Translations under genes and position numbers: made by a program
Part shown: piece by piece, positions 2,005 to 31,689 of the stretch
Layout of the letters: each line of letters starts with the position of its first letter
Position numbering within the stretch: position 1 is the stretch's first letter
The notes under the pieces: model-generated
What the model was told of the DNA's origin: nothing
The model's database searches: none
Seen by the model: the letters and a program-made list of their open reading frames with translations, nothing else
Assembly (NCBI GenBank): GCA_964543385.1
Contig: CAZIYE010000001.1
Coordinates: 210,001-242,000 of the forward strand
Source of the DNA: an uncultured Candidatus Saccharibacteria bacterium
Lineage (GTDB): Bacteria; Patescibacteriota; UBA1384; XYA2-FULL-43-10; 1-14-0-10-43-13
DNA length: 32,000 nucleotides
Direction of reading: 5' to 3'

Positions 2005-2078
2005 TGGCAGGGGCTAGAGGAATCGAACCCCTAACAAAGGTTTTGGAGACCTCCGTTATACCATTTAACTAAGCCCCT
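2005..2078 (-). tRNA. tRNA-Trp (anticodon CCA), CCA end encoded
   Basis: The reverse complement aggggct-ta-gtta-aatggta-taac-g-gaggt-ctCCAaa-acctt-tgtt-agggg-ttcgatt-cctct-agcccct-g-cca folds as a full cloverleaf. Confidence 0.93.
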
Positions 2079-2084
2079 ATTTTC

Positions 2085-2153
2085 AAGCAATAAGCTTGTA
2101 AGCAGTAAGAATTAAGCCTTATTGTCTGCTTATTACTTACTAGCTTACCGCTT
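2085..2153 (-). other. Long imperfect hairpin in the rpmG to tRNA-Trp spacer
   Basis: 2085-2097 pairs with 2141-2153 (12 bp), and 2099-2105 pairs with 2126-2132 (7 bp). The two non-Watson-Crick positions (2089/2149 and 2090/2148) are C-A on the plus strand but G-U wobbles on the minus-strand RNA. Confidence 0.5.
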
Positions 2154-2165
2154 ACTACTCGATAA

Positions 2166-2333
2166 TTATTTTGTTTCTTTGTGAAGAGTCTTTTTCTTGC
2201 AGCTCTTACAATATTTCTCAAGCTCTATGCGCTTGATCACATCTTGACCTTTCAGTCTTTTCTCAGTGTGATAATTTCGGCTTTTACAGACTTCACATTC
2301 TAGAGTAACAAGTTTTCTTGCATCTTTTGCCAT
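2166..2333 (-). CDS. rpmG: 50S ribosomal protein L33
   Basis: 55 aa, below the ORF-track cutoff. Hand translation: [55 protein letters not shown]. It shows the typical L33 length, two CxxC pairs and the KN/YxT..K core. TAA stop at 2166-2168. Confidence 0.9.
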
Positions 2334-2372
2334 AGTGGAATTTCCTAAGTTATTCGTTTGCTTATTATTTCA

Positions 2373-2447
2373 TGGAGCCACCTGTCGGATTTGAACCGAC
2401 AACCTACTGTTTACAAAACAGTTGCTCTACCGTTGAGCTAAGGTGGC
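2373..2447 (-). tRNA. tRNA-Thr (anticodon TGT), CCA end encoded
   Basis: The reverse complement gccacct-ta-gctc-aacggta-gagc-a-actgt-ttTGTaa-acagt-aggtt-gtcgg-ttcaaat-ccgac-aggtggc-t-cca folds as a complete cloverleaf. Confidence 0.93.
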
Positions 2448-2448
2448 A

Positions 2449-2534
2449 TGGTGCTGGGAGAAGGATTCGAACCTACGAAGGCATAAGCCGCCTGATTTAC
2501 AGTCAGGTGCATTTGACCGCTTTGCTATCCCAGC
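2449..2534 (-). tRNA. tRNA-Tyr (anticodon GTA), long variable arm, CCA end encoded
   Basis: Reverse complement: gctggga...cctga-ctGTAaa-tcagg-cggcttatgccttcg-(T arm ttcgaat)-tcccagc-a-cca. It has the class II long variable arm typical of bacterial tRNA-Tyr. Only 1 nt separates it from tRNA-Thr(TGT). Confidence 0.9.
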
Positions 2535-2569
2535 ATAAAACTTGTTAAATAACAATTAAATTCTCGATT

Positions 2570-2598
2570 ATTATAACAAAATAATCTCATCTAATCAA
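2570..2598 (-). promoter_or_regulatory. Candidate sigma70-type promoter in front of tRNA-Tyr
   Basis: The minus strand reads TTGATT (2598-2593), a 17-nt spacer, then TATAAT (2575-2570), about 35 nt upstream of the tRNA-Tyr 5' end. In AT-rich DNA such matches can arise by chance. Confidence 0.4.
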
Positions 2599-2630
2599 TA
2601 AATAAAAAATGGAGCCGATGACCGGAATTG

Positions 2631-2661
2631 CCCGTCTCGCCTTTGGCGTAGCCGAGGCGGA
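2631..2661 (-). other. 31-nt GC-rich hairpin insertion in the T loop of the outer tRNA (between positions 55 and 56)
   Basis: Removing 2631-2661 restores the T loop ttcaatt of the inner tRNA exactly. RNA sense is UCCGCCUCGGCUACGCCAAAGGCGAGACGGG, containing a CGCC-AAA-GGCG hairpin and outer CCGCCUC/GAGACGG pairing with 1 mismatch. Confidence 0.6.
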
Positions 2662-2677
2662 AACCGGTGACCTACTC

Positions 2678-2727
2678 TCCCGATGTTTCTATCGGGATCC
2701 CGATCCCAGTTTCCATGGGCATCGGGA
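2678..2727 (-). other. 50-nt double-hairpin insertion in the 3' strand of the outer tRNA anticodon stem
   Basis: RNA sense is UCCCGAUGCCCAUGGAAACUGGGAUCGGGA followed by UCCCGAUAGAAACAUCGGGA. Each module is closed by a 7-bp UCCCGAU/AUCGGGA clamp. Removing it restores ggagt opposite actcc. Confidence 0.6.
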
Positions 2728-2731
2728 CTTA

Positions 2732-2847
2732 CTACTAACACTATTCGTCTGGAGCCGTTGACCGGAATTGAACCGGTGACCTACTCCTTACCATGGAGTT
2801 GCTCTACCAACTGAGCTACAACGGCACCTGACGAATAGTAATAATAA
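2732..2847 (-). repeat. Inverted repeat forming an 18-bp helix that encloses tRNA-Thr(GGT)
   Basis: 2732-2749 pairs with 2830-2847. Ten consecutive Watson-Crick pairs are formed by ctattcgtc plus its 5' neighbour a (2740-2749) against gacgaatagt (2830-2839). The helix then extends with 1 mismatch (2738/2841). Three positions (2739/2840, 2735/2844, 2732/2847) are C-A on the plus strand but G-U wobbles on the minus-strand RNA. Confidence 0.75.
2750..2825 (-). tRNA. tRNA-Thr (anticodon GGT), CCA end encoded; nested inside the outer tRNA-like gene
   Basis: The reverse complement gccgttg-ta-gctc-agttggta-gagc-a-actcc-atGGTaa-ggagt-aggtc-accgg-ttcaatt-ccggt-caacggc-t-cca is a perfect 76-nt cloverleaf. 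Confidence 0.93.
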
Positions 2848-2870
2848 ATGGAGTTGCTCTACCAACTGAG

Positions 2871-2926
2871 TCCCGAGTCTCGCTTGAAGCTCGCTCGGGA
2901 TCCCGGCAACCGAAGGTTAGTCGGGA
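2871..2926 (-). other. 56-nt double-hairpin insertion in the D stem of the outer tRNA (between positions 10 and 11)
   Basis: RNA sense is UCCCGACUAACCUUCGGUUGCCGGGA followed by UCCCGAGCGAGCUUCAAGCGAGACUCGGGA. The first module contains AACC-UUCG-GGUU, a cUUCGg tetraloop that exists only on the minus-strand reading. Removing it restores ctgag|ctaca as in the inner tRNA. Confidence 0.6.
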
Positions 2927-2958
2927 CTACATCGGCATCACCTATTATTAACGAAAAG

Positions 2959-2987
2959 ATCATACCATTTATTAGAGTCGAGTTCAA
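2959..2987 (-). promoter_or_regulatory. Candidate sigma70-type promoter of the tRNA/rpmG operon
   Basis: The minus strand reads TTGAAC (2987-2982), a 17-nt spacer, then TATGAT (2964-2959). The outer tRNA 5' end (2936) lies about 22 nt downstream. Confidence 0.5.
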
Positions 2988-3021
2988 CAATAAATCTTCA
3001 CTTAAGGTAAAGCTACCAGAA

Positions 3022-4547: not shown

Positions 4548-5244
4548 AGTCTTCTTTTATAAATAAAATTAAATTCTCAAGAGCTAATCGCTGATTGGCA
4601 TTTCCGGCAATTCTCTTTTTGGCTTTGATTATCTTTTCTAAAATTATTGCTGATCTAATATCATATTCTTTTAGTAGTTTCTCCTCTAACTGCCATGTCC
4701 AATCATCTAATAAGTTAACTGCTTTATTGTCCTTTACTATCCCCTCAATTTTCTTAAACAACTGGAATAGCGGTAAGGCGGTAATATCATAGTATGAATA
4801 TGTAATACTTCTCATTTCTGGCTGATCATTTATCCTAACGATTCTACATCGTGATCTGATGGTCGAAATCACATTGCTGCTTCTTGCCGTCAATATAATT
4901 ATAACATTTTTTGGTGGCTCTTCTAGAGTCTTCAATAAGATATTTGAAGATGAATTATTTAGTCTATCAACTTGGTATATAATCCCAATACGTTTTCCAC
5001 CATGGCTTGACAATGAAATCTGATGGATGAACTCTCTGATTGCAGCCACCGATATCTCTCCGGATTTTCCTGTTTCATTGCTCGGTTCGATAATCGAAAT
5101 ATCTTCTACCAAACAACCAGATTTAGTTATCAGATTATCAATTTCCTTTTGAGCAGATTTCAGCCCCTGGGAAATAAAAAGATAAGCATGAGAAAAACTA
5201 TCTTTTTCTGGCTTATTTTTTAATGTTTCATCAATCTGCATCAA
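4537..5244 (-). CDS. holB: DNA polymerase III delta-prime subunit (short form)
   Basis: 235 aa. Motifs present: HAYLF, LLKTLEEPP and TIRSRC. It is followed by the PSP1 gene, as in many bacteria. Confidence 0.85.
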   Translation of the reverse strand: MMQIDETLKNKPEKDSFSHAYLFISQGLKSAQKEIDNLITKSGCLVEDISIIEPSNETGKSGEISVAAIREFIHQISLSSHGGKRIGIIYQVDRLNNSSSNILLKTLEEPPKNVIIILTARSSNVISTIRSRCRIVRINDQPEMRSITYSYYDITALPLFQLFKKIEGIVKDNKAVNLLDDWTWQLEEKLLKEYDIRSAIILEKIIKAKKRIAGNANQRLALENLILFIKEDYER

Positions 5245-8014: not shown

Positions 8015-11000
8015 CTAATTTGCTTGAGTCGTTGCTGCAGGAGTGCTTGGCACAGTACTTTTAACCTGGGTTGTAATATCACTAGGAATATCTGCAGATT
8101 TAAGAATCGCATCAAAGAATGACTGTAGAGATGGATCCACTTTAGTAGTTTTCCCACTTTCGGCTACGGTAGTGAATGGATCTGAAGTCATTATATCTTT
8201 AGGTCTAGGGCACATATTATAGAAGGCGTCGCTAAGATTGGTATAACGCTTTACACAATTATATTCTTCACCATTTATAAAACGATACTCTTTTTGAACT
8301 GAACCATACCACTTGCCCTGAATAGTAGTCTTCATGACATCACCCATCACAGCAAGCATCTGTTCTGGAGTCTGACTACCTATTAATGTATATGGCTGAT
8401 GACCGCTCCAGAAATACCAATTCATAAACTCTGTTGTCGAAGGATTTCTCCCCAGCATCTCTTTATAGACAGCAAATATCTTAGCAGAGCGAGCTTTCTG
8501 TTGATCTGGCGTTAGCTTGACTGGTGGAATCTGATAAACCCTTATGGTCTTCAACAGTTTCTTGAGGCTATGAGCATAATATACTTCGCTCATATCATAG
8601 TTTTGCGTGCCTGATATCATCTTTGGTGTTGGAGGTGTCAACGGTCTCTTGTCATTGCCGCCAAGACTAACAGAGAATCCAGGTCCAGCCAGCTTAAATC
8701 CACCCTTTGCATTTTGACCGATGGACAACGGAATTGGTATAGGGCCGACAGGTACAAAACCACCTATCCCTAATCCCCCATCTTTGCCTATAGACAGGCT
8801 AACTCCGACTCCAGCTAGGCTTCCAATCGGCAAGCTAGCACCAGTGATCCCATTTTTGTCGAAACCAACACCTATATTCCCTAATCCTACAAGCTGGCCG
8901 ACATTCACGGAGCCGCTGACAGAACCATTTAATCCGATACTTATACCACCCATGGAATTGCCGCTAGAATCATTATATGCATAATTCATAGCCAGATTAC
9001 CCTTACTATCAAAGGCCATACCTAGATTGCCACCTGTGGTTATTTCTTTAGTACGAGCGACCTCTTTTGTTTGCTCTTCTCCAGTTGCTGGATCTATTAC
9101 TGCTTTACCATCAGCTCCAGTAACTAAAACCTTGTCAAAAACCTGCTTACCCTGACCGTCTAACACATTGACGGTCTTTACGTCAAATTTAGAGAGATCA
9201 ACGCTACCAGATACTACACCTCTTGTGTCGATCATTAATGAACCCGCCCCTGACATGATTTTCTCACCTAAAATATTTTTTGCTGAATTTGGCAATAATT
9301 TATCCAAAGGCAAAGGAATCTGGAATGATTTAGTATTAGCATTGTAAGAGAAAAGTTGCCCAAAGGCCTTGAATGATCCACCAACGCTCCCGTCTCTAGC
9401 TACCTGTATTGAGGTCATCTCAAAATACTTGCCGTCTTGGCCAAGCGAAATATAAGCATTACCATCTAATTTATTTAAATCAGCATAAACATTACCATTT
9501 CTGTCTGAAACTAAGCTGATTTTTTGTCCTGCAAATTCAACAGGTACATTTGCAGTATATTTCTGAGTAAATGGATCAAATGCAATATAACCAATTGACT
9601 CGAAACAACCATCTGATTGGGCACCACCAGCACATGCAACCTTTTTCTTTATCGAGGTAACATATTCCATATGACCAGTTGCAGTATTCATCGATACACC
9701 TGTTCGATAGGAAGTTTTCAAAATATCATTACTTTCGATCATATTGCTAACATATTCAGCAAACTCCAAAGTCTTGATAGTATCGGCGTTGCCCTTAGAT
9801 ACTGATTGTATACCTGCAACAGTCGATTTCATTGCATCTAGATTGAATGGAATAGTTGAAAGATATGAAGTTATAGCTCGCTGATCATCAATATTGTTTG
9901 GTCGCATTGCAGCTGCCATAAGCGAAGCACAGCTACCAACGCAATAACCATTGTTCTTGGATATATCCTCTGCTATTGCCTTAGAATTATCGTTTAAAAA
10001 TATAATTGTTTCTAAGCTAAAATATTTATCCGCTCCTGTTGCAGAAGCAGTAGCTATCAAAGTCTTCATTGCATCGGCTTGTGCTCTTGCAGAATCATCA
10101 ATCTGCGCCGTCTGATCTGCTGATAAATCCTTTTCATTTGCAGCAATGGTATTAGTTAAGAAATTCCATGCGGTAAGCAATGGATTTGCCACCCCGTCCC
10201 ATACACGAGCAAAAATATTTAAATCTTTTTCTGCCACACTGGCTGGCGTTTCTGGAACTCCAGCATTAGGGCCAACCGTATTAGTACTATCAGTTCTTTT
10301 TAAAGCAGCAATCTCTGGCTTTGCTAGTAGATCCATCACTATTTCCATATTTCTAGCAAATGGCTCCGCTAACTTCTGATCCTTATCGATCAAGTTTGCC
10401 TCATACATTGGTTGATTTAAAGCATTGTGGAGTATAGTTTCTGCTTCTGTATGATTGCTACTTGCCCAACTTACGCCATCTTTAGACCAAACAGTACCAT
10501 CCCATTTATATCCCAAATAATCCTCTGAAATTTGCTGGATCAATTCCTTATCAGATTTTACTTTTATAGCTTGGATATCAGGTTTAGCGAGTGTTATTTG
10601 AAGCTGTTTATTCAAAGCATCGGCATGATTGACAGCTGCCGGATTAGTCTTTGCTTGGTTATAAGCCGCCAGAGTTTCGTTACATTGATCATGAAGTAAA
10701 TTTTCAGCAGGTGTATGTTTGGCCCTATCCCAAGTGTCGCCGCTATCATTAACCCAAGCCCCGGTGACTTGCTTGCCATTTAGAGTCCAAACCTTGTCAG
10801 GGTTCCAGATATAACCCAAATAACCATCCGAGATGTCACTAACTACTTGGGCTGCTATTACAACTTTATTATTTGCGGAAGCGGCAACTGTCGCAGGCTT
10901 TACCATGATAGCATTTGCAGCTTTTATCTGCTTATCAAGTTCCAGAGCATTACTTTTAACAGGAGAGTCAACGGTTTGATTAGCAACATACAATGCCTGA

Positions 11001-11368
11001 TTTAATGCACTATGAAGTTCAATATCGGTTTGACTATGCCCTTCATTGGTCCAAACTTTGCCATTATTATCAACCCAGGCTCCCTTAACCTCTTTGCCGT
11101 TTATAGTCTGAGCTTGATTTGGATTCCACTTATAACCAAGCTTGGCTTGAGAAACAGTACTGATAGCATCAACTGTACTCATGGCTTGAAGCTTGTAGCT
11201 CCTACTTGCATCGGCTTTAGGAGCAGTAGTAGTCTGTATCGCAGGCAAAGCAGAGCTATCTGCACTAATCAAGTCCGTAAAGAAAAATACAAATCCACAA
11301 ACCAAAAACAGAATCGTTGATATAAGTAATATCAAGGCCTTTTTATCAATAGAGCTTTTACTTTTCAT
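8015..11368 (-). CDS. Very large membrane-anchored surface protein: three ~100-aa tandem repeats, a Cys/His papain-like region, a Gly-rich region and a DUF4214-like C-terminal region
   Basis: The track ORF reaches 11425, but ATG 11368 is preceded by GGAGGGAG and gives MKSKSSIDKKALILLISTILFLVCGFVFFF, a signal anchor. The repeats are anchored on LGY(K/I)W at track residues 96, 203 and 304. Other elements: NNGYCVGSCASLMAAAM ... GHMEYV; a Gly-rich stretch at about residues 797-925; and AVYKEMLGRNPSTTEFMNWYFW, which resembles the DUF4214 LGR..d..g...W motif. Confidence 0.85.
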   Translation of the reverse strand: MKSKSSIDKKALILLISTILFLVCGFVFFFTDLISADSSALPAIQTTTAPKADASRSYKLQAMSTVDAISTVSQAKLGYKWNPNQAQTINGKEVKGAWVDNNGKVWTNEGHSQTDIELHSALNQALYVANQTVDSPVKSNALELDKQIKAANAIMVKPATVAASANNKVVIAAQVVSDISDGYLGYIWNPDKVWTLNGKQVTGAWVNDSGDTWDRAKHTPAENLLHDQCNETLAAYNQAKTNPAAVNHADALNKQLQITLAKPDIQAIKVKSDKELIQQISEDYLGYKWDGTVWSKDGVSWASSNHTEAETILHNALNQPMYEANLIDKDQKLAEPFARNMEIVMDLLAKPEIAALKRTDSTNTVGPNAGVPETPASVAEKDLNIFARVWDGVANPLLTAWNFLTNTIAANEKDLSADQTAQIDDSARAQADAMKTLIATASATGADKYFSLETIIFLNDNSKAIAEDISKNNGYCVGSCASLMAAAMRPNNIDDQRAITSYLSTIPFNLDAMKSTVAGIQSVSKGNADTIKTLEFAEYVSNMIESNDILKTSYRTGVSMNTATGHMEYVTSIKKKVACAGGAQSDGCFESIGYIAFDPFTQKYTANVPVEFAGQKISLVSDRNGNVYADLNKLDGNAYISLGQDGKYFEMTSIQVARDGSVGGSFKAFGQLFSYNANTKSFQIPLPLDKLLPNSAKNILGEKIMSGAGSLMIDTRGVVSGSVDLSKFDVKTVNVLDGQGKQVFDKVLVTGADGKAVIDPATGEEQTKEVARTKEITTGGNLGMAFDSKGNLAMNYAYNDSSGNSMGGISIGLNGSVSGSVNVGQLVGLGNIGVGFDKNGITGASLPIGSLAGVGVSLSIGKDGGLGIGGFVPVGPIPIPLSIGQNAKGGFKLAGPGFSVSLGGNDKRPLTPPTPKMISGTQNYDMSEVYYAHSLKKLLKTIRVYQIPPVKLTPDQQKARSAKIFAVYKEMLGRNPSTTEFMNWYFWSGHQPYTLIGSQTPEQMLAVMGDVMKTTIQGKWYGSVQKEYRFINGEEYNCVKRYTNLSDAFYNMCPRPKDIMTSDPFTTVAESGKTTKVDPSLQSFFDAILKSADIPSDITTQVKSTVPSTPAATTQAN

Positions 11369-11504
11369 CTCCCTCCAAAACATTATTACAATTACATATA
11401 AAATTACATTAGAAACAATCGCCAATTCGATGACTAATTAATATTTTAGTGCTTTATATTTTGTCTGTCAAATTGTCCCAAAAAACAAAACTATAGAAAT
11501 AATA

Positions 11505-13178: not shown

Positions 13179-13255
13179 CGGGGATTAGCGCAGCCTGGTA
13201 GCGCGCATCGTTCGGGACGATGAGGTCGTGAGTTCAAATCTCGCATCCCCGACCA
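13179..13255 (+). tRNA. tRNA-Pro (anticodon CGG), CCA end encoded
   Basis: The sequence cggggat-ta-gcgc-agcctggta-gcgc-g-catcg-ttCGGga-cgatg-aggtc-gtgag-ttcaaat-ctcgc-atccccg-a-cca folds as a complete cloverleaf. Confidence 0.93.
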
Positions 13256-17551: not shown

Positions 17552-17627
17552 CGGGGTGTAGCGTAGTTGGTAGCGCGCATGGCTGGGGGTCATGAGGTCG
17601 TGGGTTCGAGTCCCGCCACCCCGACCA
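17552..17627 (+). tRNA. tRNA-Pro (anticodon GGG), CCA end encoded
   Basis: The sequence cggggtg-ta-gcgt-agttggta-gcgc-g-catgg-ctGGGgg-tcatg-aggtc-gtggg-ttcgagt-cccgc-caccccg-a-cca folds as a cloverleaf. There is one G-U in the anticodon stem and a T-C mismatch in the D stem. Confidence 0.9.
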
Positions 17628-23881: not shown

Positions 23882-23955
23882 TGATACTTAATATTATTTC
23901 TAGGCGCTTTCAAAGCTTCATGCGCTTGCAACCGTCGAAATAATATTAAGTATCA
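23882..23955. repeat. 19-bp perfect inverted repeat with a 36-nt GC-rich spacer, between tyrS and argS
   Basis: tgatacttaatattatttc (23882-23900) is the exact reverse complement of gaaataatattaagtatca (23937-23955). The spacer taggcgctttcaaagcttcatgcgcttgcaaccgtc is much more GC-rich than the arms. Confidence 0.85.
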
Positions 23956-30087: not shown

Positions 30088-31602
30088 TTATTTTATTATT
30101 TCTTTCAATTCATCCAATTGCTTTTGCACTGCATCAATTTTTGCTTTGATCTCAGCACTCTTATCAACGGTAGCTGCGGGCTCATTAATCTTGATCTCAG
30201 GCACCGCACTGCCTGTCACAACTGCTCCATTTTTAATAAATGTGTCCAGAGATGCTGCATTGTCGAAACCAGCGACCTTATTTGTCTTAGCATCAAATAA
30301 TACCGTCTTCGCAATACCTGCGGCATCATTCGGTATTATCGAGAGCAACCAATAAAGATCTTTGCCAATTTTGAGCGGTCTTGGCTCTGCTAGATTAAAT
30401 GCATCCCAGCTATAAGTTGGAAACTCTCTTTTAATATAATCAGCTGCCGCAACAGGACCCGTTAACTGTGAATTTTGATCATACTCAACAATTTCTCTTT
30501 TGCCCGTCGTTGCATCAAAGATAAAAATCTTATAGACACCGTATGACCTGCCATATGGCTCAGCTACGACTAACTGTTTGAATCCTTCGTTTGTGGACAC
30601 ATGAAATATTTTCTCACTCCCCGGTAAGGCGACTGTCTCTGTTTGATTTTTATGCAAAAACCACTTGTTTAGAAGACCACCTTTGTAAGCATATGAATCA
30701 GTATAATAATTCACCAGCTCTTTTGGATACAACCGATTATTCTTAAGGAAAGAAATGTTTTGTGCTTCTTCTGGTGTGTAATCAGATATATAGCCGCCAG
30801 CATCAACTAGCATCACACCTGCCCAGTAAGGTACTCGAAAAGGAAAACCCTTGTAGCCGATATAAGGCACAGCCGTTAGCCAATTGCCACTATCATCTTT
30901 CAAATACACTGGTTCTGATGAATAATCAACGCCATATTTCTTTAATTTCAGTTGATAATATAAATTATCAAAAATTCCGATCCCCTCTGAGTATTTAAAT
31001 TCCTTGTCCTCAATGGCCACTTTTTTATCGATAGTATCAACTTCAACAGTCACAAAACCATTCAATTTGTTAGTAAAATATAGTATTCCGCCATCTGGCA
31101 ATCTAGGGAAAACTCTCTTTAATTTGCCATCAACCATGACGATTTGCGAATCACCCAACATCTCCTGAGGATTTTGAAAAGTATCAGCAGCATAACGCTT
31201 TGCGACCTGTTTTGGCGTCAGTCTAATTGGTTCGAAATTTGGCAAATCGACTTTTGCCTCATAGGTAACTTGTTTCGCAGTCAAAAGATATCTGATCTCG
31301 CTCTCAAAATTAAGAGCTACAAAAATAAGAATTAAAAAGACTATATAGCCAGAAATAATCAACGGTGAAACTTGATTTGATGCCTTGAATGTATAGTTTT
31401 GCATTCCCGTAGGTACCATAGTAATTTTGCCAAACTTCTTTAAAAGAAGAGCGACGCCGGCGATCAATGCAACGATCAAAATACCTTTGAGAGGGCTAAC
31501 CACAAAAAGCATATAGAAACCGTGAAAAAATGGCCTAAATAGCCAAATAAGTAGGACCAAAATAACAATCCAAATAAGAGAACGAGGATTTATCTTTTTC
31601 AT
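30088..31602 (-). CDS. Hypothetical membrane protein (N-terminal TM helices, large extracytoplasmic domain, C-terminal coiled coil)
   Basis: The track start 31614 is a TTG. ATG 31602 has GGGTGA 4 nt upstream and gives MKKINPRSLIWIVILVLLIW. There are three to four N-terminal hydrophobic helices. The C-terminal end AEIKAKIDAVQKQLDELKEIIK is coiled-coil-like. Confidence 0.75.
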   Translation of the reverse strand: MKKINPRSLIWIVILVLLIWLFRPFFHGFYMLFVVSPLKGILIVALIAGVALLLKKFGKITMVPTGMQNYTFKASNQVSPLIISGYIVFLILIFVALNFESEIRYLLTAKQVTYEAKVDLPNFEPIRLTPKQVAKRYAADTFQNPQEMLGDSQIVMVDGKLKRVFPRLPDGGILYFTNKLNGFVTVEVDTIDKKVAIEDKEFKYSEGIGIFDNLYYQLKLKKYGVDYSSEPVYLKDDSGNWLTAVPYIGYKGFPFRVPYWAGVMLVDAGGYISDYTPEEAQNISFLKNNRLYPKELVNYYTDSYAYKGGLLNKWFLHKNQTETVALPGSEKIFHVSTNEGFKQLVVAEPYGRSYGVYKIFIFDATTGKREIVEYDQNSQLTGPVAAADYIKREFPTYSWDAFNLAEPRPLKIGKDLYWLLSIIPNDAAGIAKTVLFDAKTNKVAGFDNAASLDTFIKNGAVVTGSAVPEIKINEPAATVDKSAEIKAKIDAVQKQLDELKEIIK

Positions 31603-31689
31603 AAAATCACCCAATTAATTATTGTAATTAATTTGATTATACAATGATTAACTAAAGAATCATATCGTCCGCGGATCACCGTATAATCT

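Follow-up and report, generated by a model that had tools for sequence, protein, structure and literature searches.

What does it mean when an intact tRNA gene lies in the anticodon loop of another gene for the same amino acid, and is the outer of the two still a working gene? The question is raised by a 327-nt feature on the minus strand (2936-2610) of a 32,000-nt stretch of DNA from an uncultured Candidatus Saccharibacteria bacterium (contig CAZIYE010000001.1, positions 210,001 to 242,000; the whole stretch is hereafter called the window, and coordinates count from its first letter), in which a complete tRNA-Thr(GGU) gene, the inner gene, is enclosed by a heavily interrupted tRNA-Thr-like gene, the outer gene. 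In this study, we have compared this feature with related loci and genomes, which are designated by L-numbers (L003, L006 and so on). We put at about 0.68 the probability that the feature is a composite left by gene replacement rather than a single working RNA gene and that endonuclease-associated replacement cassettes repeatedly invade cognate tRNA genes, leaving nested pseudogene shells with small palindromes. For the outer copy, the most probable reading is that of a broken shell left over from the original gene.

A complete tRNA gene inside an interrupted one

The tRNA-in-tRNA anatomy described in the first-pass annotation of this DNA was confirmed, with five outer segments and four insertions, all on the minus strand. 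Outer nt 1-10 (GCCGATGTAG, 2927-2936) share the acceptor type GCCGATG with the intact gene of L006 and are separated from the next segment, between nt 10 and 11, by a 56-nt insertion of two adjacent hairpins with TCCCGA.../...TCGGGA stems (2871-2926). Outer nt 11-33 (CTCAGTTGGTAGAGCAACTCCAT, 2848-2870), comprising the D arm, the 5' strand of the anticodon stem, C32 and U33, are identical to the inner gene. The anticodon loop is then opened between outer nt 33 and 35 by a 114-nt cassette consisting of a 5' arm (TTATTATTACTATTCGTC, 2830-2847), a 4-nt spacer AGGT (2826-2829), the inner tRNA-Thr(GGU) with its encoded CCA (2750-2825) and a 3' arm (GACGAATAGTGTTAGTAG, 2732-2749), which begins immediately after the CCA and pairs with the 5' arm. 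The arm base G2732 serves also as nt 35, and the outer gene continues with nt 36-39 (TAAG, 2728-2731), a 50-nt insertion between nt 39 and 40 that again holds two adjacent hairpins with TCCCGA/TCGGGA stems (2678-2727), nt 40-55 (GAGTAGGTCACCGGTT, 2662-2677), a 31-nt T-loop hairpin of the TCCGCC... type between nt 55 and 56 (2631-2661), and nt 56-76 (CAATTCCGGTCATCGGCTCCA, 2610-2630), whose downstream flank is like that of the plain gene of L003.

The inner tRNA-Thr(GGU), found by ARAGORN, scored at 71.6 bits by Rfam and 100% identical to the tRNA-Thr(GGU) of L004, is the functional gene. Once the four insertions are removed, the joined outer segments restore a canonical tRNA-Thr of 76 nt, called by ARAGORN as tRNA-Thr(TGT). 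The two genes are 96% identical and differ at three positions, namely the compensating pair A5:T68 of the outer against T5:A68 of the inner gene, and nt 34, which is T in the former and G in the latter. On the native sequence, ARAGORN and Rfam find the inner gene only, and keeping any single hairpin insert leaves ARAGORN with no outer gene.

When the 327-nt RNA is folded for minimum free energy, the inner cloverleaf, the long helix and the hairpins of the inserts are recovered along with the acceptor stem of the outer gene; the energy is -148.4 kcal/mol (z = -7.96), which none of 100 shuffles equalled. The 18-bp helix of the earlier description stands as a helix, but its composition had to be corrected to 14 Watson-Crick pairs, 3 G-U pairs and 1 U-U mismatch. 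Its G-U pairs had also been taken to argue for a folded RNA, as all three are G-U on the transcribed strand; over 19 such helices, however, there are 13 G-U and 13 A-C mismatches, and the argument, weak here, does not hold for the family. Similarly, the proposed UGU anticodon of the outer gene is obtained if the first and last helix bases are counted as exon; as the locus has GGT in all relatives, G34 may just as well have been lost or mutated at the junction.

A promoter-like site (TTGAAC, 17 nt, TATGAT with TG; 2959-2987, minus strand) lies 23 nt upstream of the outer 5' end. We found no promoter between the outer 5' end and the inner tRNA, which makes this site the only candidate for both genes, and the inner tRNA would therefore be transcribed through the outer 5' part. 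With the sole promoter-like site upstream of the outer 5' end, the earlier claim that maturation of the inner tRNA necessarily cuts the outer transcript in two is borne out.

Shells, cassettes and endonuclease genes at related loci

The closest relative found, L003 (contig CAYPDD010000037.1; PSP1 86% identical), has a single plain tRNA-Thr(GGU) gene, bordered on both sides by the sequences that border the outer gene of the window, the upstream promoter region being conserved; the outer gene is therefore the resident, ancestral one. In L006/L009 (85%), an outer 5' remnant (GCCGTTATAG) is followed by a double hairpin at nt 10/11, decayed D-loop bases, CCAT, an A/T-rich stretch and an intact tRNA; the latter has the acceptor GCCGATG, the type of the window's outer gene, and no outer 3' half is left. 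L004 has nt 1-26 with a D-loop double hairpin, then the leader and the intact gene, and L005 and L010 are plain. The alleles can be read as a series: GCCGTTA is intact in L003; L006 has a GCCGTTA shell and an intact GCCGATG gene; the window has a GCCGATG shell and an intact GCCGTTG gene. Judged from these sequences, the three closest genomes form a succession of alleles. The distribution is also patchy among close relatives in the way expected of homing, L003 being plain and both L006 and the window nested with different allele types. In L003, a run of N (4883-4892) covers the junction of tRNA-Tyr and tRNA-Thr(UGU), hence both are missed by ARAGORN.

The arrangement recurs beyond these genomes, in many related CPR bacteria that resemble Berkelbacteria. 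Scanning metagenomes around rpmG yielded 44 further loci. Shells were counted only if they consisted of a few long blocks; free-gap alignment of tRNAs to flanks overfits (noise ~64-66 of 74). Cognate fragments at most 160 nt from an intact tRNA were found in 27 of 156 distinct contexts, 13 of them two-sided, and they concern tRNA-Trp, tRNA-Thr(UGU) and tRNA-Thr(GGU). Nests that are full or almost so are present in L003, L021, L023 (double), L050, L037 and L043, and others are truncated. The breakpoint falls in the anticodon loop (nt 32-37) in most two-sided nests. In 14 of 16 curated nests, the shell is nearer to an intact allele found in a different genome than to the tRNA inside it, and shells with at least 37 surviving nt are 92-100% identical to foreign alleles as against 60-86% to their own inner tRNA. 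For the majority of nests, the identity between shell and inner tRNA is 55-86%. The shells being nearer to foreign alleles, the inner copies are incoming alleles and not local duplicates.

Four of the tRNA-Trp nests deserve description in their own right. That of L003 (5209-5438) begins with an outer 5' part, a D-loop double hairpin and the decayed D arm, after which come two arms enclosing an intact tRNA-Trp whose acceptor stem differs, and lastly the outer 3' half; the nest is broken between C35 and A36, and its outer sequence is the allele of the window's plain tRNA-Trp. The nest of L023 (2767-3143) has two layers, with a second 3' fragment (nt 53-74) ~125 nt past the first shell, behind a terminator-like hairpin, which suggests successive replacement rounds. 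L021 and L050 have a common shell, a 31-nt insert at nt 26/27 and a distal arm motif ...GGACAGGC, around inner tRNAs that are 78% identical, and it looks as if cargo had been exchanged inside a conserved frame.

The arms of the cassettes keep a fixed register, in which the helix stops 4 nt before nt 1 of the tRNA and resumes directly past the CCA. In this register of 4-nt leader and 0-nt trailer, 77% of tested arm positions pair over 19 nests, compared to 35-50% off that line and 35% in non-nested tRNAs. The median energy of the leader-trailer duplex is -15.0 kcal/mol for tRNAs with a shell and -20.5 kcal/mol for two-sided nests, compared to -5.5 kcal/mol for other tRNAs (p = 1.8e-9). Of the 11 Trp nests, 10 have TGAT as their 4-nt spacer, and the arm sequences vary by locus, with a TC(N)CTCACC(Y)T family common to Trp and Thr(UGU). 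One motif, TCCGCC...GGCGGA, occurs both as arms around a tRNA and, at other loci, as an empty hairpin of 15-16 nt, and may be either a landing pad or a scar. It encloses a tRNA in L013 (1477-1577), L034 (1192-1319) and L037 (1332-1433); the empty hairpins are those of L011 (579-594), L018 (2952-2967), L023 (2794-2808), L049 (2006-2020) and L053 (922-937).

The three other inserts of the window's shell, in the D stem, the anticodon stem and the T loop, are palindromic, and they too have counterparts. The TCCCGA/TCGGGA double hairpin is also found at 10/11 in L028 and L006/L009 and at 39/40 in the L037 shell, with conserved stems and unrelated loops. A second type of double hairpin, made of two units of TCRGCC, 3 nt and GGCYGA, is found behind AGTT in the D loops of both Thr(GGU) and Trp shells. 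Palindromes of the T region occur in the shells of L011 and L018 (nt 53 to 54-58), L037 (51/52) and L013, and T-loop hairpins of the TCCGCC type are recurrent. As a group, these palindromes start with TC, end with GA and measure 15-56 nt in one or two hairpins, and they have repeatedly been inserted behind AGTT (in the D loop) and behind TAG or AAG. Within the 262 kb of loci, small palindromes were found only in or beside tRNA shells, and the density of GC-rich hairpins is 1.59 per kb within the clusters and 0.53 per kb outside them. Dispersed genome repeats similar to repetitive extragenic palindromic (REP) sequences or miniature inverted-repeat transposable elements were considered and rejected, TCCCGA...TCGGGA being present in tRNA-Thr shells only (window and 262 kb of loci). 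These palindromes may represent landing pads, scars that lost cassettes left behind, or tiny mobile elements with specific target sites.

Endonuclease genes are the other companion of these tRNAs. All open reading frames (ORFs) of the 262 kb were searched against three endonuclease profiles, and the 35 ORFs that matched all lie within the tRNA cluster; 32 of them end -20 to +63 nt from an intact tRNA on the same strand, and 2 of the other 3 run off the contig end. At least one such ORF is present in 23 of the 44 metagenome loci. The first family is a PD-(D/E)XK protein of 124 aa encoded before tRNA-Tyr, with a 5' Tyr fragment upstream (PF11645, PDDEXK_5, E = 1e-18; PDB 2OST, 3e-9); we take 2OST to be the tRNA-intron endonuclease I-Ssp6803I. 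GIY-YIG proteins of 72-95 aa (E = 1e-14 to 1e-17) make up the second, and in L047 the full order can be read: shell 5' part, GIY-YIG, arm, tRNA, arm, shell 3' part. The third family, of ~200-220 aa, has an N-terminal helix-turn-helix (HTH) and a weakly LAGLIDADG-like C-terminal domain, and its stop codon is made of U8-A9-G10 of the downstream tRNA-Trp, tRNA-Thr(UGU) or tRNA-Thr(GGU). ORFs ending inside a tRNA in this way are found in L013 (2736-3398), L021 (1706-2311), L022 (1811-2392) and 20 further loci, plus L055, L059 and L062. RNase P cutting at tRNA +1 would strip the stop codon from the mRNA, possibly an inherent brake on expression. At least 1078 unannotated proteins belong to the HTH family, which is fused to tRNA-Trp in other classes of the Candidate Phyla Radiation (CPR) too, as well as being present within tRNA arrays on viral contigs. 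Two of the viral contigs with HTH/LAGLIDADG-like relatives, L071 (IMGVR_UViG_3300033562_000573) and L066, have dense tRNA arrays, with Ala-TGC, Gly-TCC and Thr-TGT each twice in 3.5 kb.

Proposed gene replacement and its alternatives

Based on these observations, we propose that an endonuclease would cut a naive tRNA gene, usually in the DNA of the anticodon loop, and that repair copied from an invaded donor would bring in a cassette made of a replacement tRNA with or without the endonuclease gene. The carried tRNA would then take over the function, and the split resident gene, now a dispensable shell, would gather palindromic mini-insertions and decay until the next round, with repeated rounds producing layers. 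The endonuclease gene could be lost later, and the window would be a recent endonuclease-free state. At the RNA level, the outer promoter would read through the shell, which would act as leader and trailer and whose halves would be by-products, while the inner tRNA would be freed by RNase P and 3' processing, perhaps aided by a double-strand cut in the arm helix.

Several points weigh against this proposal. There is no transposase or endonuclease gene among the ORFs of the window, and the role of an endonuclease at this locus is therefore deduced from the relatives. For the HTH family, the largest, an endonuclease fold has weak support: Pfam LAGLIDADG_3 is matched below threshold in 10 of 63 members (best E = 0.002), and a PDB sequence search matches the N-terminal HTH only. 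Its AlphaFold model has a predicted local distance difference test score of 93, and in Foldseek the best PDB matches are OmpA-like at a template modelling (TM) score of ~0.3; in a viral library, the best named matches are LAGLIDADG proteins or endonucleases, but weakly so (E = 5e-3 to 3e-2, TM 0.23-0.34), and TM scores to phage LAGLIDADG proteins are 0.25-0.46. An inner tRNA whose anticodon arm is identical to that of the shell should be a target too, and its immunity does not follow from the proposal. Nor does the proposal account for where the complementary arms and the palindromic mini-insertions come from. Moreover, the window's shell has no disabling substitution except at nt 34, and exons change more slowly than the inserts within them, with 90% against 71% identity between L021 and L050 (p = 0.018) and 97% against 74% between the window and L037 (p = 0.003), which would not be expected of pure junk. 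This slow change could reflect selection at the level of the element, the shell halves then being the homology arms used when the cassette is copied into further genes; an RNA-level role is another possible cause, and a third would be hypermutable palindromes.

The most far-reaching alternative is that the outer gene is a working interrupted tRNA-Thr(UGU), from which the inserts are removed and whose halves are joined, or held together by the arm helix as a split tRNA, after release of the inner tRNA by RNase P and 3' processing. Such maturation would call for a bacterial pathway able to take out flush hairpin inserts and to use the release of the inner tRNA as the "intron" cut; if it exists, it would give Bacteria their first case of protein-dependent tRNA splicing or of a split tRNA. 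The perfect cloverleaf after removal of the four inserts, the very stable fold, the fixed helix register, the better conserved exons and several other shells that are at least 93% complete are all in its favour, as is the complementary acceptor pair 5:68, although A5:T68 is merely the allele type of the intact gene of L006. We nevertheless regard it as very unlikely, for the homologous shells are truncated or decayed: those of L006/L009 and L004 are without a 3' half, the L037 shell has U33C and an anticodon loop enlarged by additional bases, and the D arm of the L003-Trp shell has decayed, changes that would be lethal to a tRNA. Two of the window's inserts sit within stems (10/11 and 39/40), a separate canonical tRNA-Thr(UGU) is encoded 260 nt downstream, and the helices have no G-U excess. 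Bulge-helix-bulge junctions were sought in sequence and fold and rejected, the hairpins being flush with the junctions, with no 3-nt bulges 4 bp apart. Rfam detected no group I core or other ribozyme at the gathering threshold in 2550-3000, where only chance matches at E up to 10 were returned, and no group I or II introns in 20 related loci; no ORF within the 32-kb window matched a splicing endonuclease or RNA ligase. Of the three options left by the first-pass annotation, a new maturation pathway or functional split or multi-intron tRNA is thus not supported, and an elaborately decayed paralog is nearest to the evidence; the decay of outer segments in relatives, which that annotation had itself named as the mark of a pseudogene, is what the related loci show. 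A more modest role for the same structure, which is compatible with gene replacement, is that of a processing or insulation scaffold, with arms and hairpin-studded shell kept so that the precursor folds correctly for the inner tRNA to be released. RNase III could act on the arm helix, and mispairing between shell and inner tRNA could be blocked by the hairpins. The inner tRNA has no promoter of its own and its cloverleaf is isolated in the fold, the helix register is fixed to the mature tRNA ends, and arms and hairpin stems stay complementary while their sequence changes. Transition mismatches show no sense-strand bias, however (arms 13 G-U against 13 A-C, hairpins 13 against 6, p = 0.17), such helices are absent from most tRNAs of the same clusters, and the 5' arm is missing in cassettes fused to an endonuclease ORF, and we consider the scaffold rather doubtful.

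Simpler explanations dispense with mobile cassettes altogether. Local duplication by slippage or unequal recombination, followed by neutral decay only, would fit the 96% identity of the window's two genes, its lack of an endonuclease gene and the resemblance of L004 to a tandem duplication of leader and nt 1-26. We judge it improbable in view of the diverged alleles carried as inner tRNAs in most nests, of a topology that is nested and not tandem, with the anticodon-loop breakpoint and the fixed register of arm, 4 nt, tRNA-CCA and arm recurring across tRNA identities, and of the very tight linkage of endonuclease genes to intact tRNAs. An island of the integrase type does not describe the locus either, as the 114-nt insert is without an ORF and is directly flanked by both halves of the old gene. 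Finally, a mixture of strains with differing tRNA alleles could create such a feature during assembly, and contig ends do fall within it in L001 and in a 1787-nt contig of GCA_041443025.1. The chance of this is negligible: Logan contigs from SRR12261225 and SRR12261227, independently assembled, are 100% identical to the window and one of them spans the whole feature, the longest exact repeat is just 23 nt, and many assemblies from unrelated sequencing projects have the same nested architecture; the feature is therefore not an assembly artefact.

Genomic setting, precedents and meaning

By gene content, the host is a CPR bacterium near Berkelbacteria. The gene order around the feature is holB, PSP1/RicT, a TPR protein, tRNA-Thr(GGU), tRNA-Tyr, tRNA-Thr(UGU), rpmG and tRNA-Trp, and genes for ArgRS, TyrRS, a class A penicillin-binding protein and RadA are found further along the window. 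The rest of the conserved cluster (2005-2598, minus strand; ARAGORN/Rfam) has only plain genes in this genome: a promoter-like site (2598-2570) precedes tRNA-Tyr (2534-2449), tRNA-Thr(UGU) (2447-2373), rpmG (2333-2166) and tRNA-Trp (2078-2005), all on the minus strand. An exact-sequence look-up of L33 gave no match. Elsewhere in the window, the tRNA-Pro genes CGG and GGG (13179-13255 and 17552-17627) are plain, with neither endonuclease genes nor pieces of a shell beside them. Between the genes for ArgRS and TyrRS is a perfect inverted repeat of 19 bp whose halves are 36 nt apart (23882-23955), and three large ORFs on the minus strand, of 1136 aa (8015-11425), 508 aa (30088-31614) and more than 630 aa (1-1890, running off the window), have no Pfam match at E <=1e-5.

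Each part of the proposed process has a partial precedent. Group I introns with homing endonucleases reside in the anticodon loops of bacterial tRNA genes, for example the tRNA-fMet intron of Synechocystis with I-Ssp6803I. The insertion site in the anticodon loop is shared with our cassettes, and the 124-aa ORFs adjacent to tRNA-Tyr are of the same PD-(D/E)XK family, but here there is no ribozyme, and it would be the complete carried tRNA, not splicing, that rescues function. In organelles, mobile endonuclease ORFs carry a partial duplicate of their target gene and the displaced fragment becomes a pseudogene, as in atp6 of Allomyces. There too, the invader supplies the sequence that keeps the gene working while the displaced original decays alongside; the difference is that our target is an RNA gene, that the whole gene is duplicated and that the topology is nested. 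Very small palindromic mobile elements are also familiar, such as REP/REPIN, the small dispersed repeats of cyanobacteria and the double-hairpin elements of Allomyces mitochondria. The palindromes of the shells are similar to these in their size of 15-56 nt, their one or two hairpins, conserved stems, variable loops and recurrent sites, but within the 262 kb they are confined to tRNA shells and not dispersed, and we know of no transposase for them.

A precedent for the linkage between endonuclease and tRNA genes is SegB of phages T4 and T6, a free-standing homing endonuclease whose gene lies among tRNA genes and drives both the preferential inheritance and the segmental duplication of the latter, and whose homologues are statistically associated with tRNAs (PMC13096335). 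Endonuclease genes among tRNA genes, including GIY-YIG ORFs, are common to both systems. In our case, however, the setting is a CPR chromosome with nucleases of three unrelated families, the old cognate gene has the new tRNA copy inside it and the ORF of the largest family ends within the tRNA, at U8-A9-G10. In archaea, multi-intron, split and tri-split tRNAs and transposing tRNA introns have been described, and a tRNA-Thr(GGU) of Caldiarchaeum is disrupted by a mobile element (PMC3293823, PMC10714607). Multiple non-canonical interruptions, a helix that joins halves and tRNA fragments adjacent to a mobile element are points of likeness, and the Caldiarchaeum case even concerns the same tRNA. 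Unlike these, our locus is bacterial and without bulge-helix-bulge motifs, the interrupted copy appears non-functional and the insert holds a whole cognate tRNA. The first-pass annotation knew of no bacterial nested tRNA, and the literature on nested or disrupted bacterial tRNAs with endonucleases gave us analogues only; neither the nested replacement topology in bacterial chromosomes, nor the ORF-tRNA fusion, nor the fixed arm register was found in the literature searched. A lineage-wide, endonuclease-linked replacement of tRNA genes in CPR bacteria is apparently so far undescribed.

In conclusion, our results suggest that a selfish element can enter an essential single-copy RNA gene without a self-splicing intron, by bringing a spare copy of the gene along. 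Layered tRNA loci of the "Russian-doll" type would then be a record of successive replacements, and they point to frequent exchange of tRNA alleles among CPR bacteria, in shells that are silently missed by standard tRNA finders. The same data provide a likely role for a large unannotated CPR protein family, with its at least 1078 members and a stop codon inside a tRNA, and candidates for new tRNA-gene-specific endonucleases.

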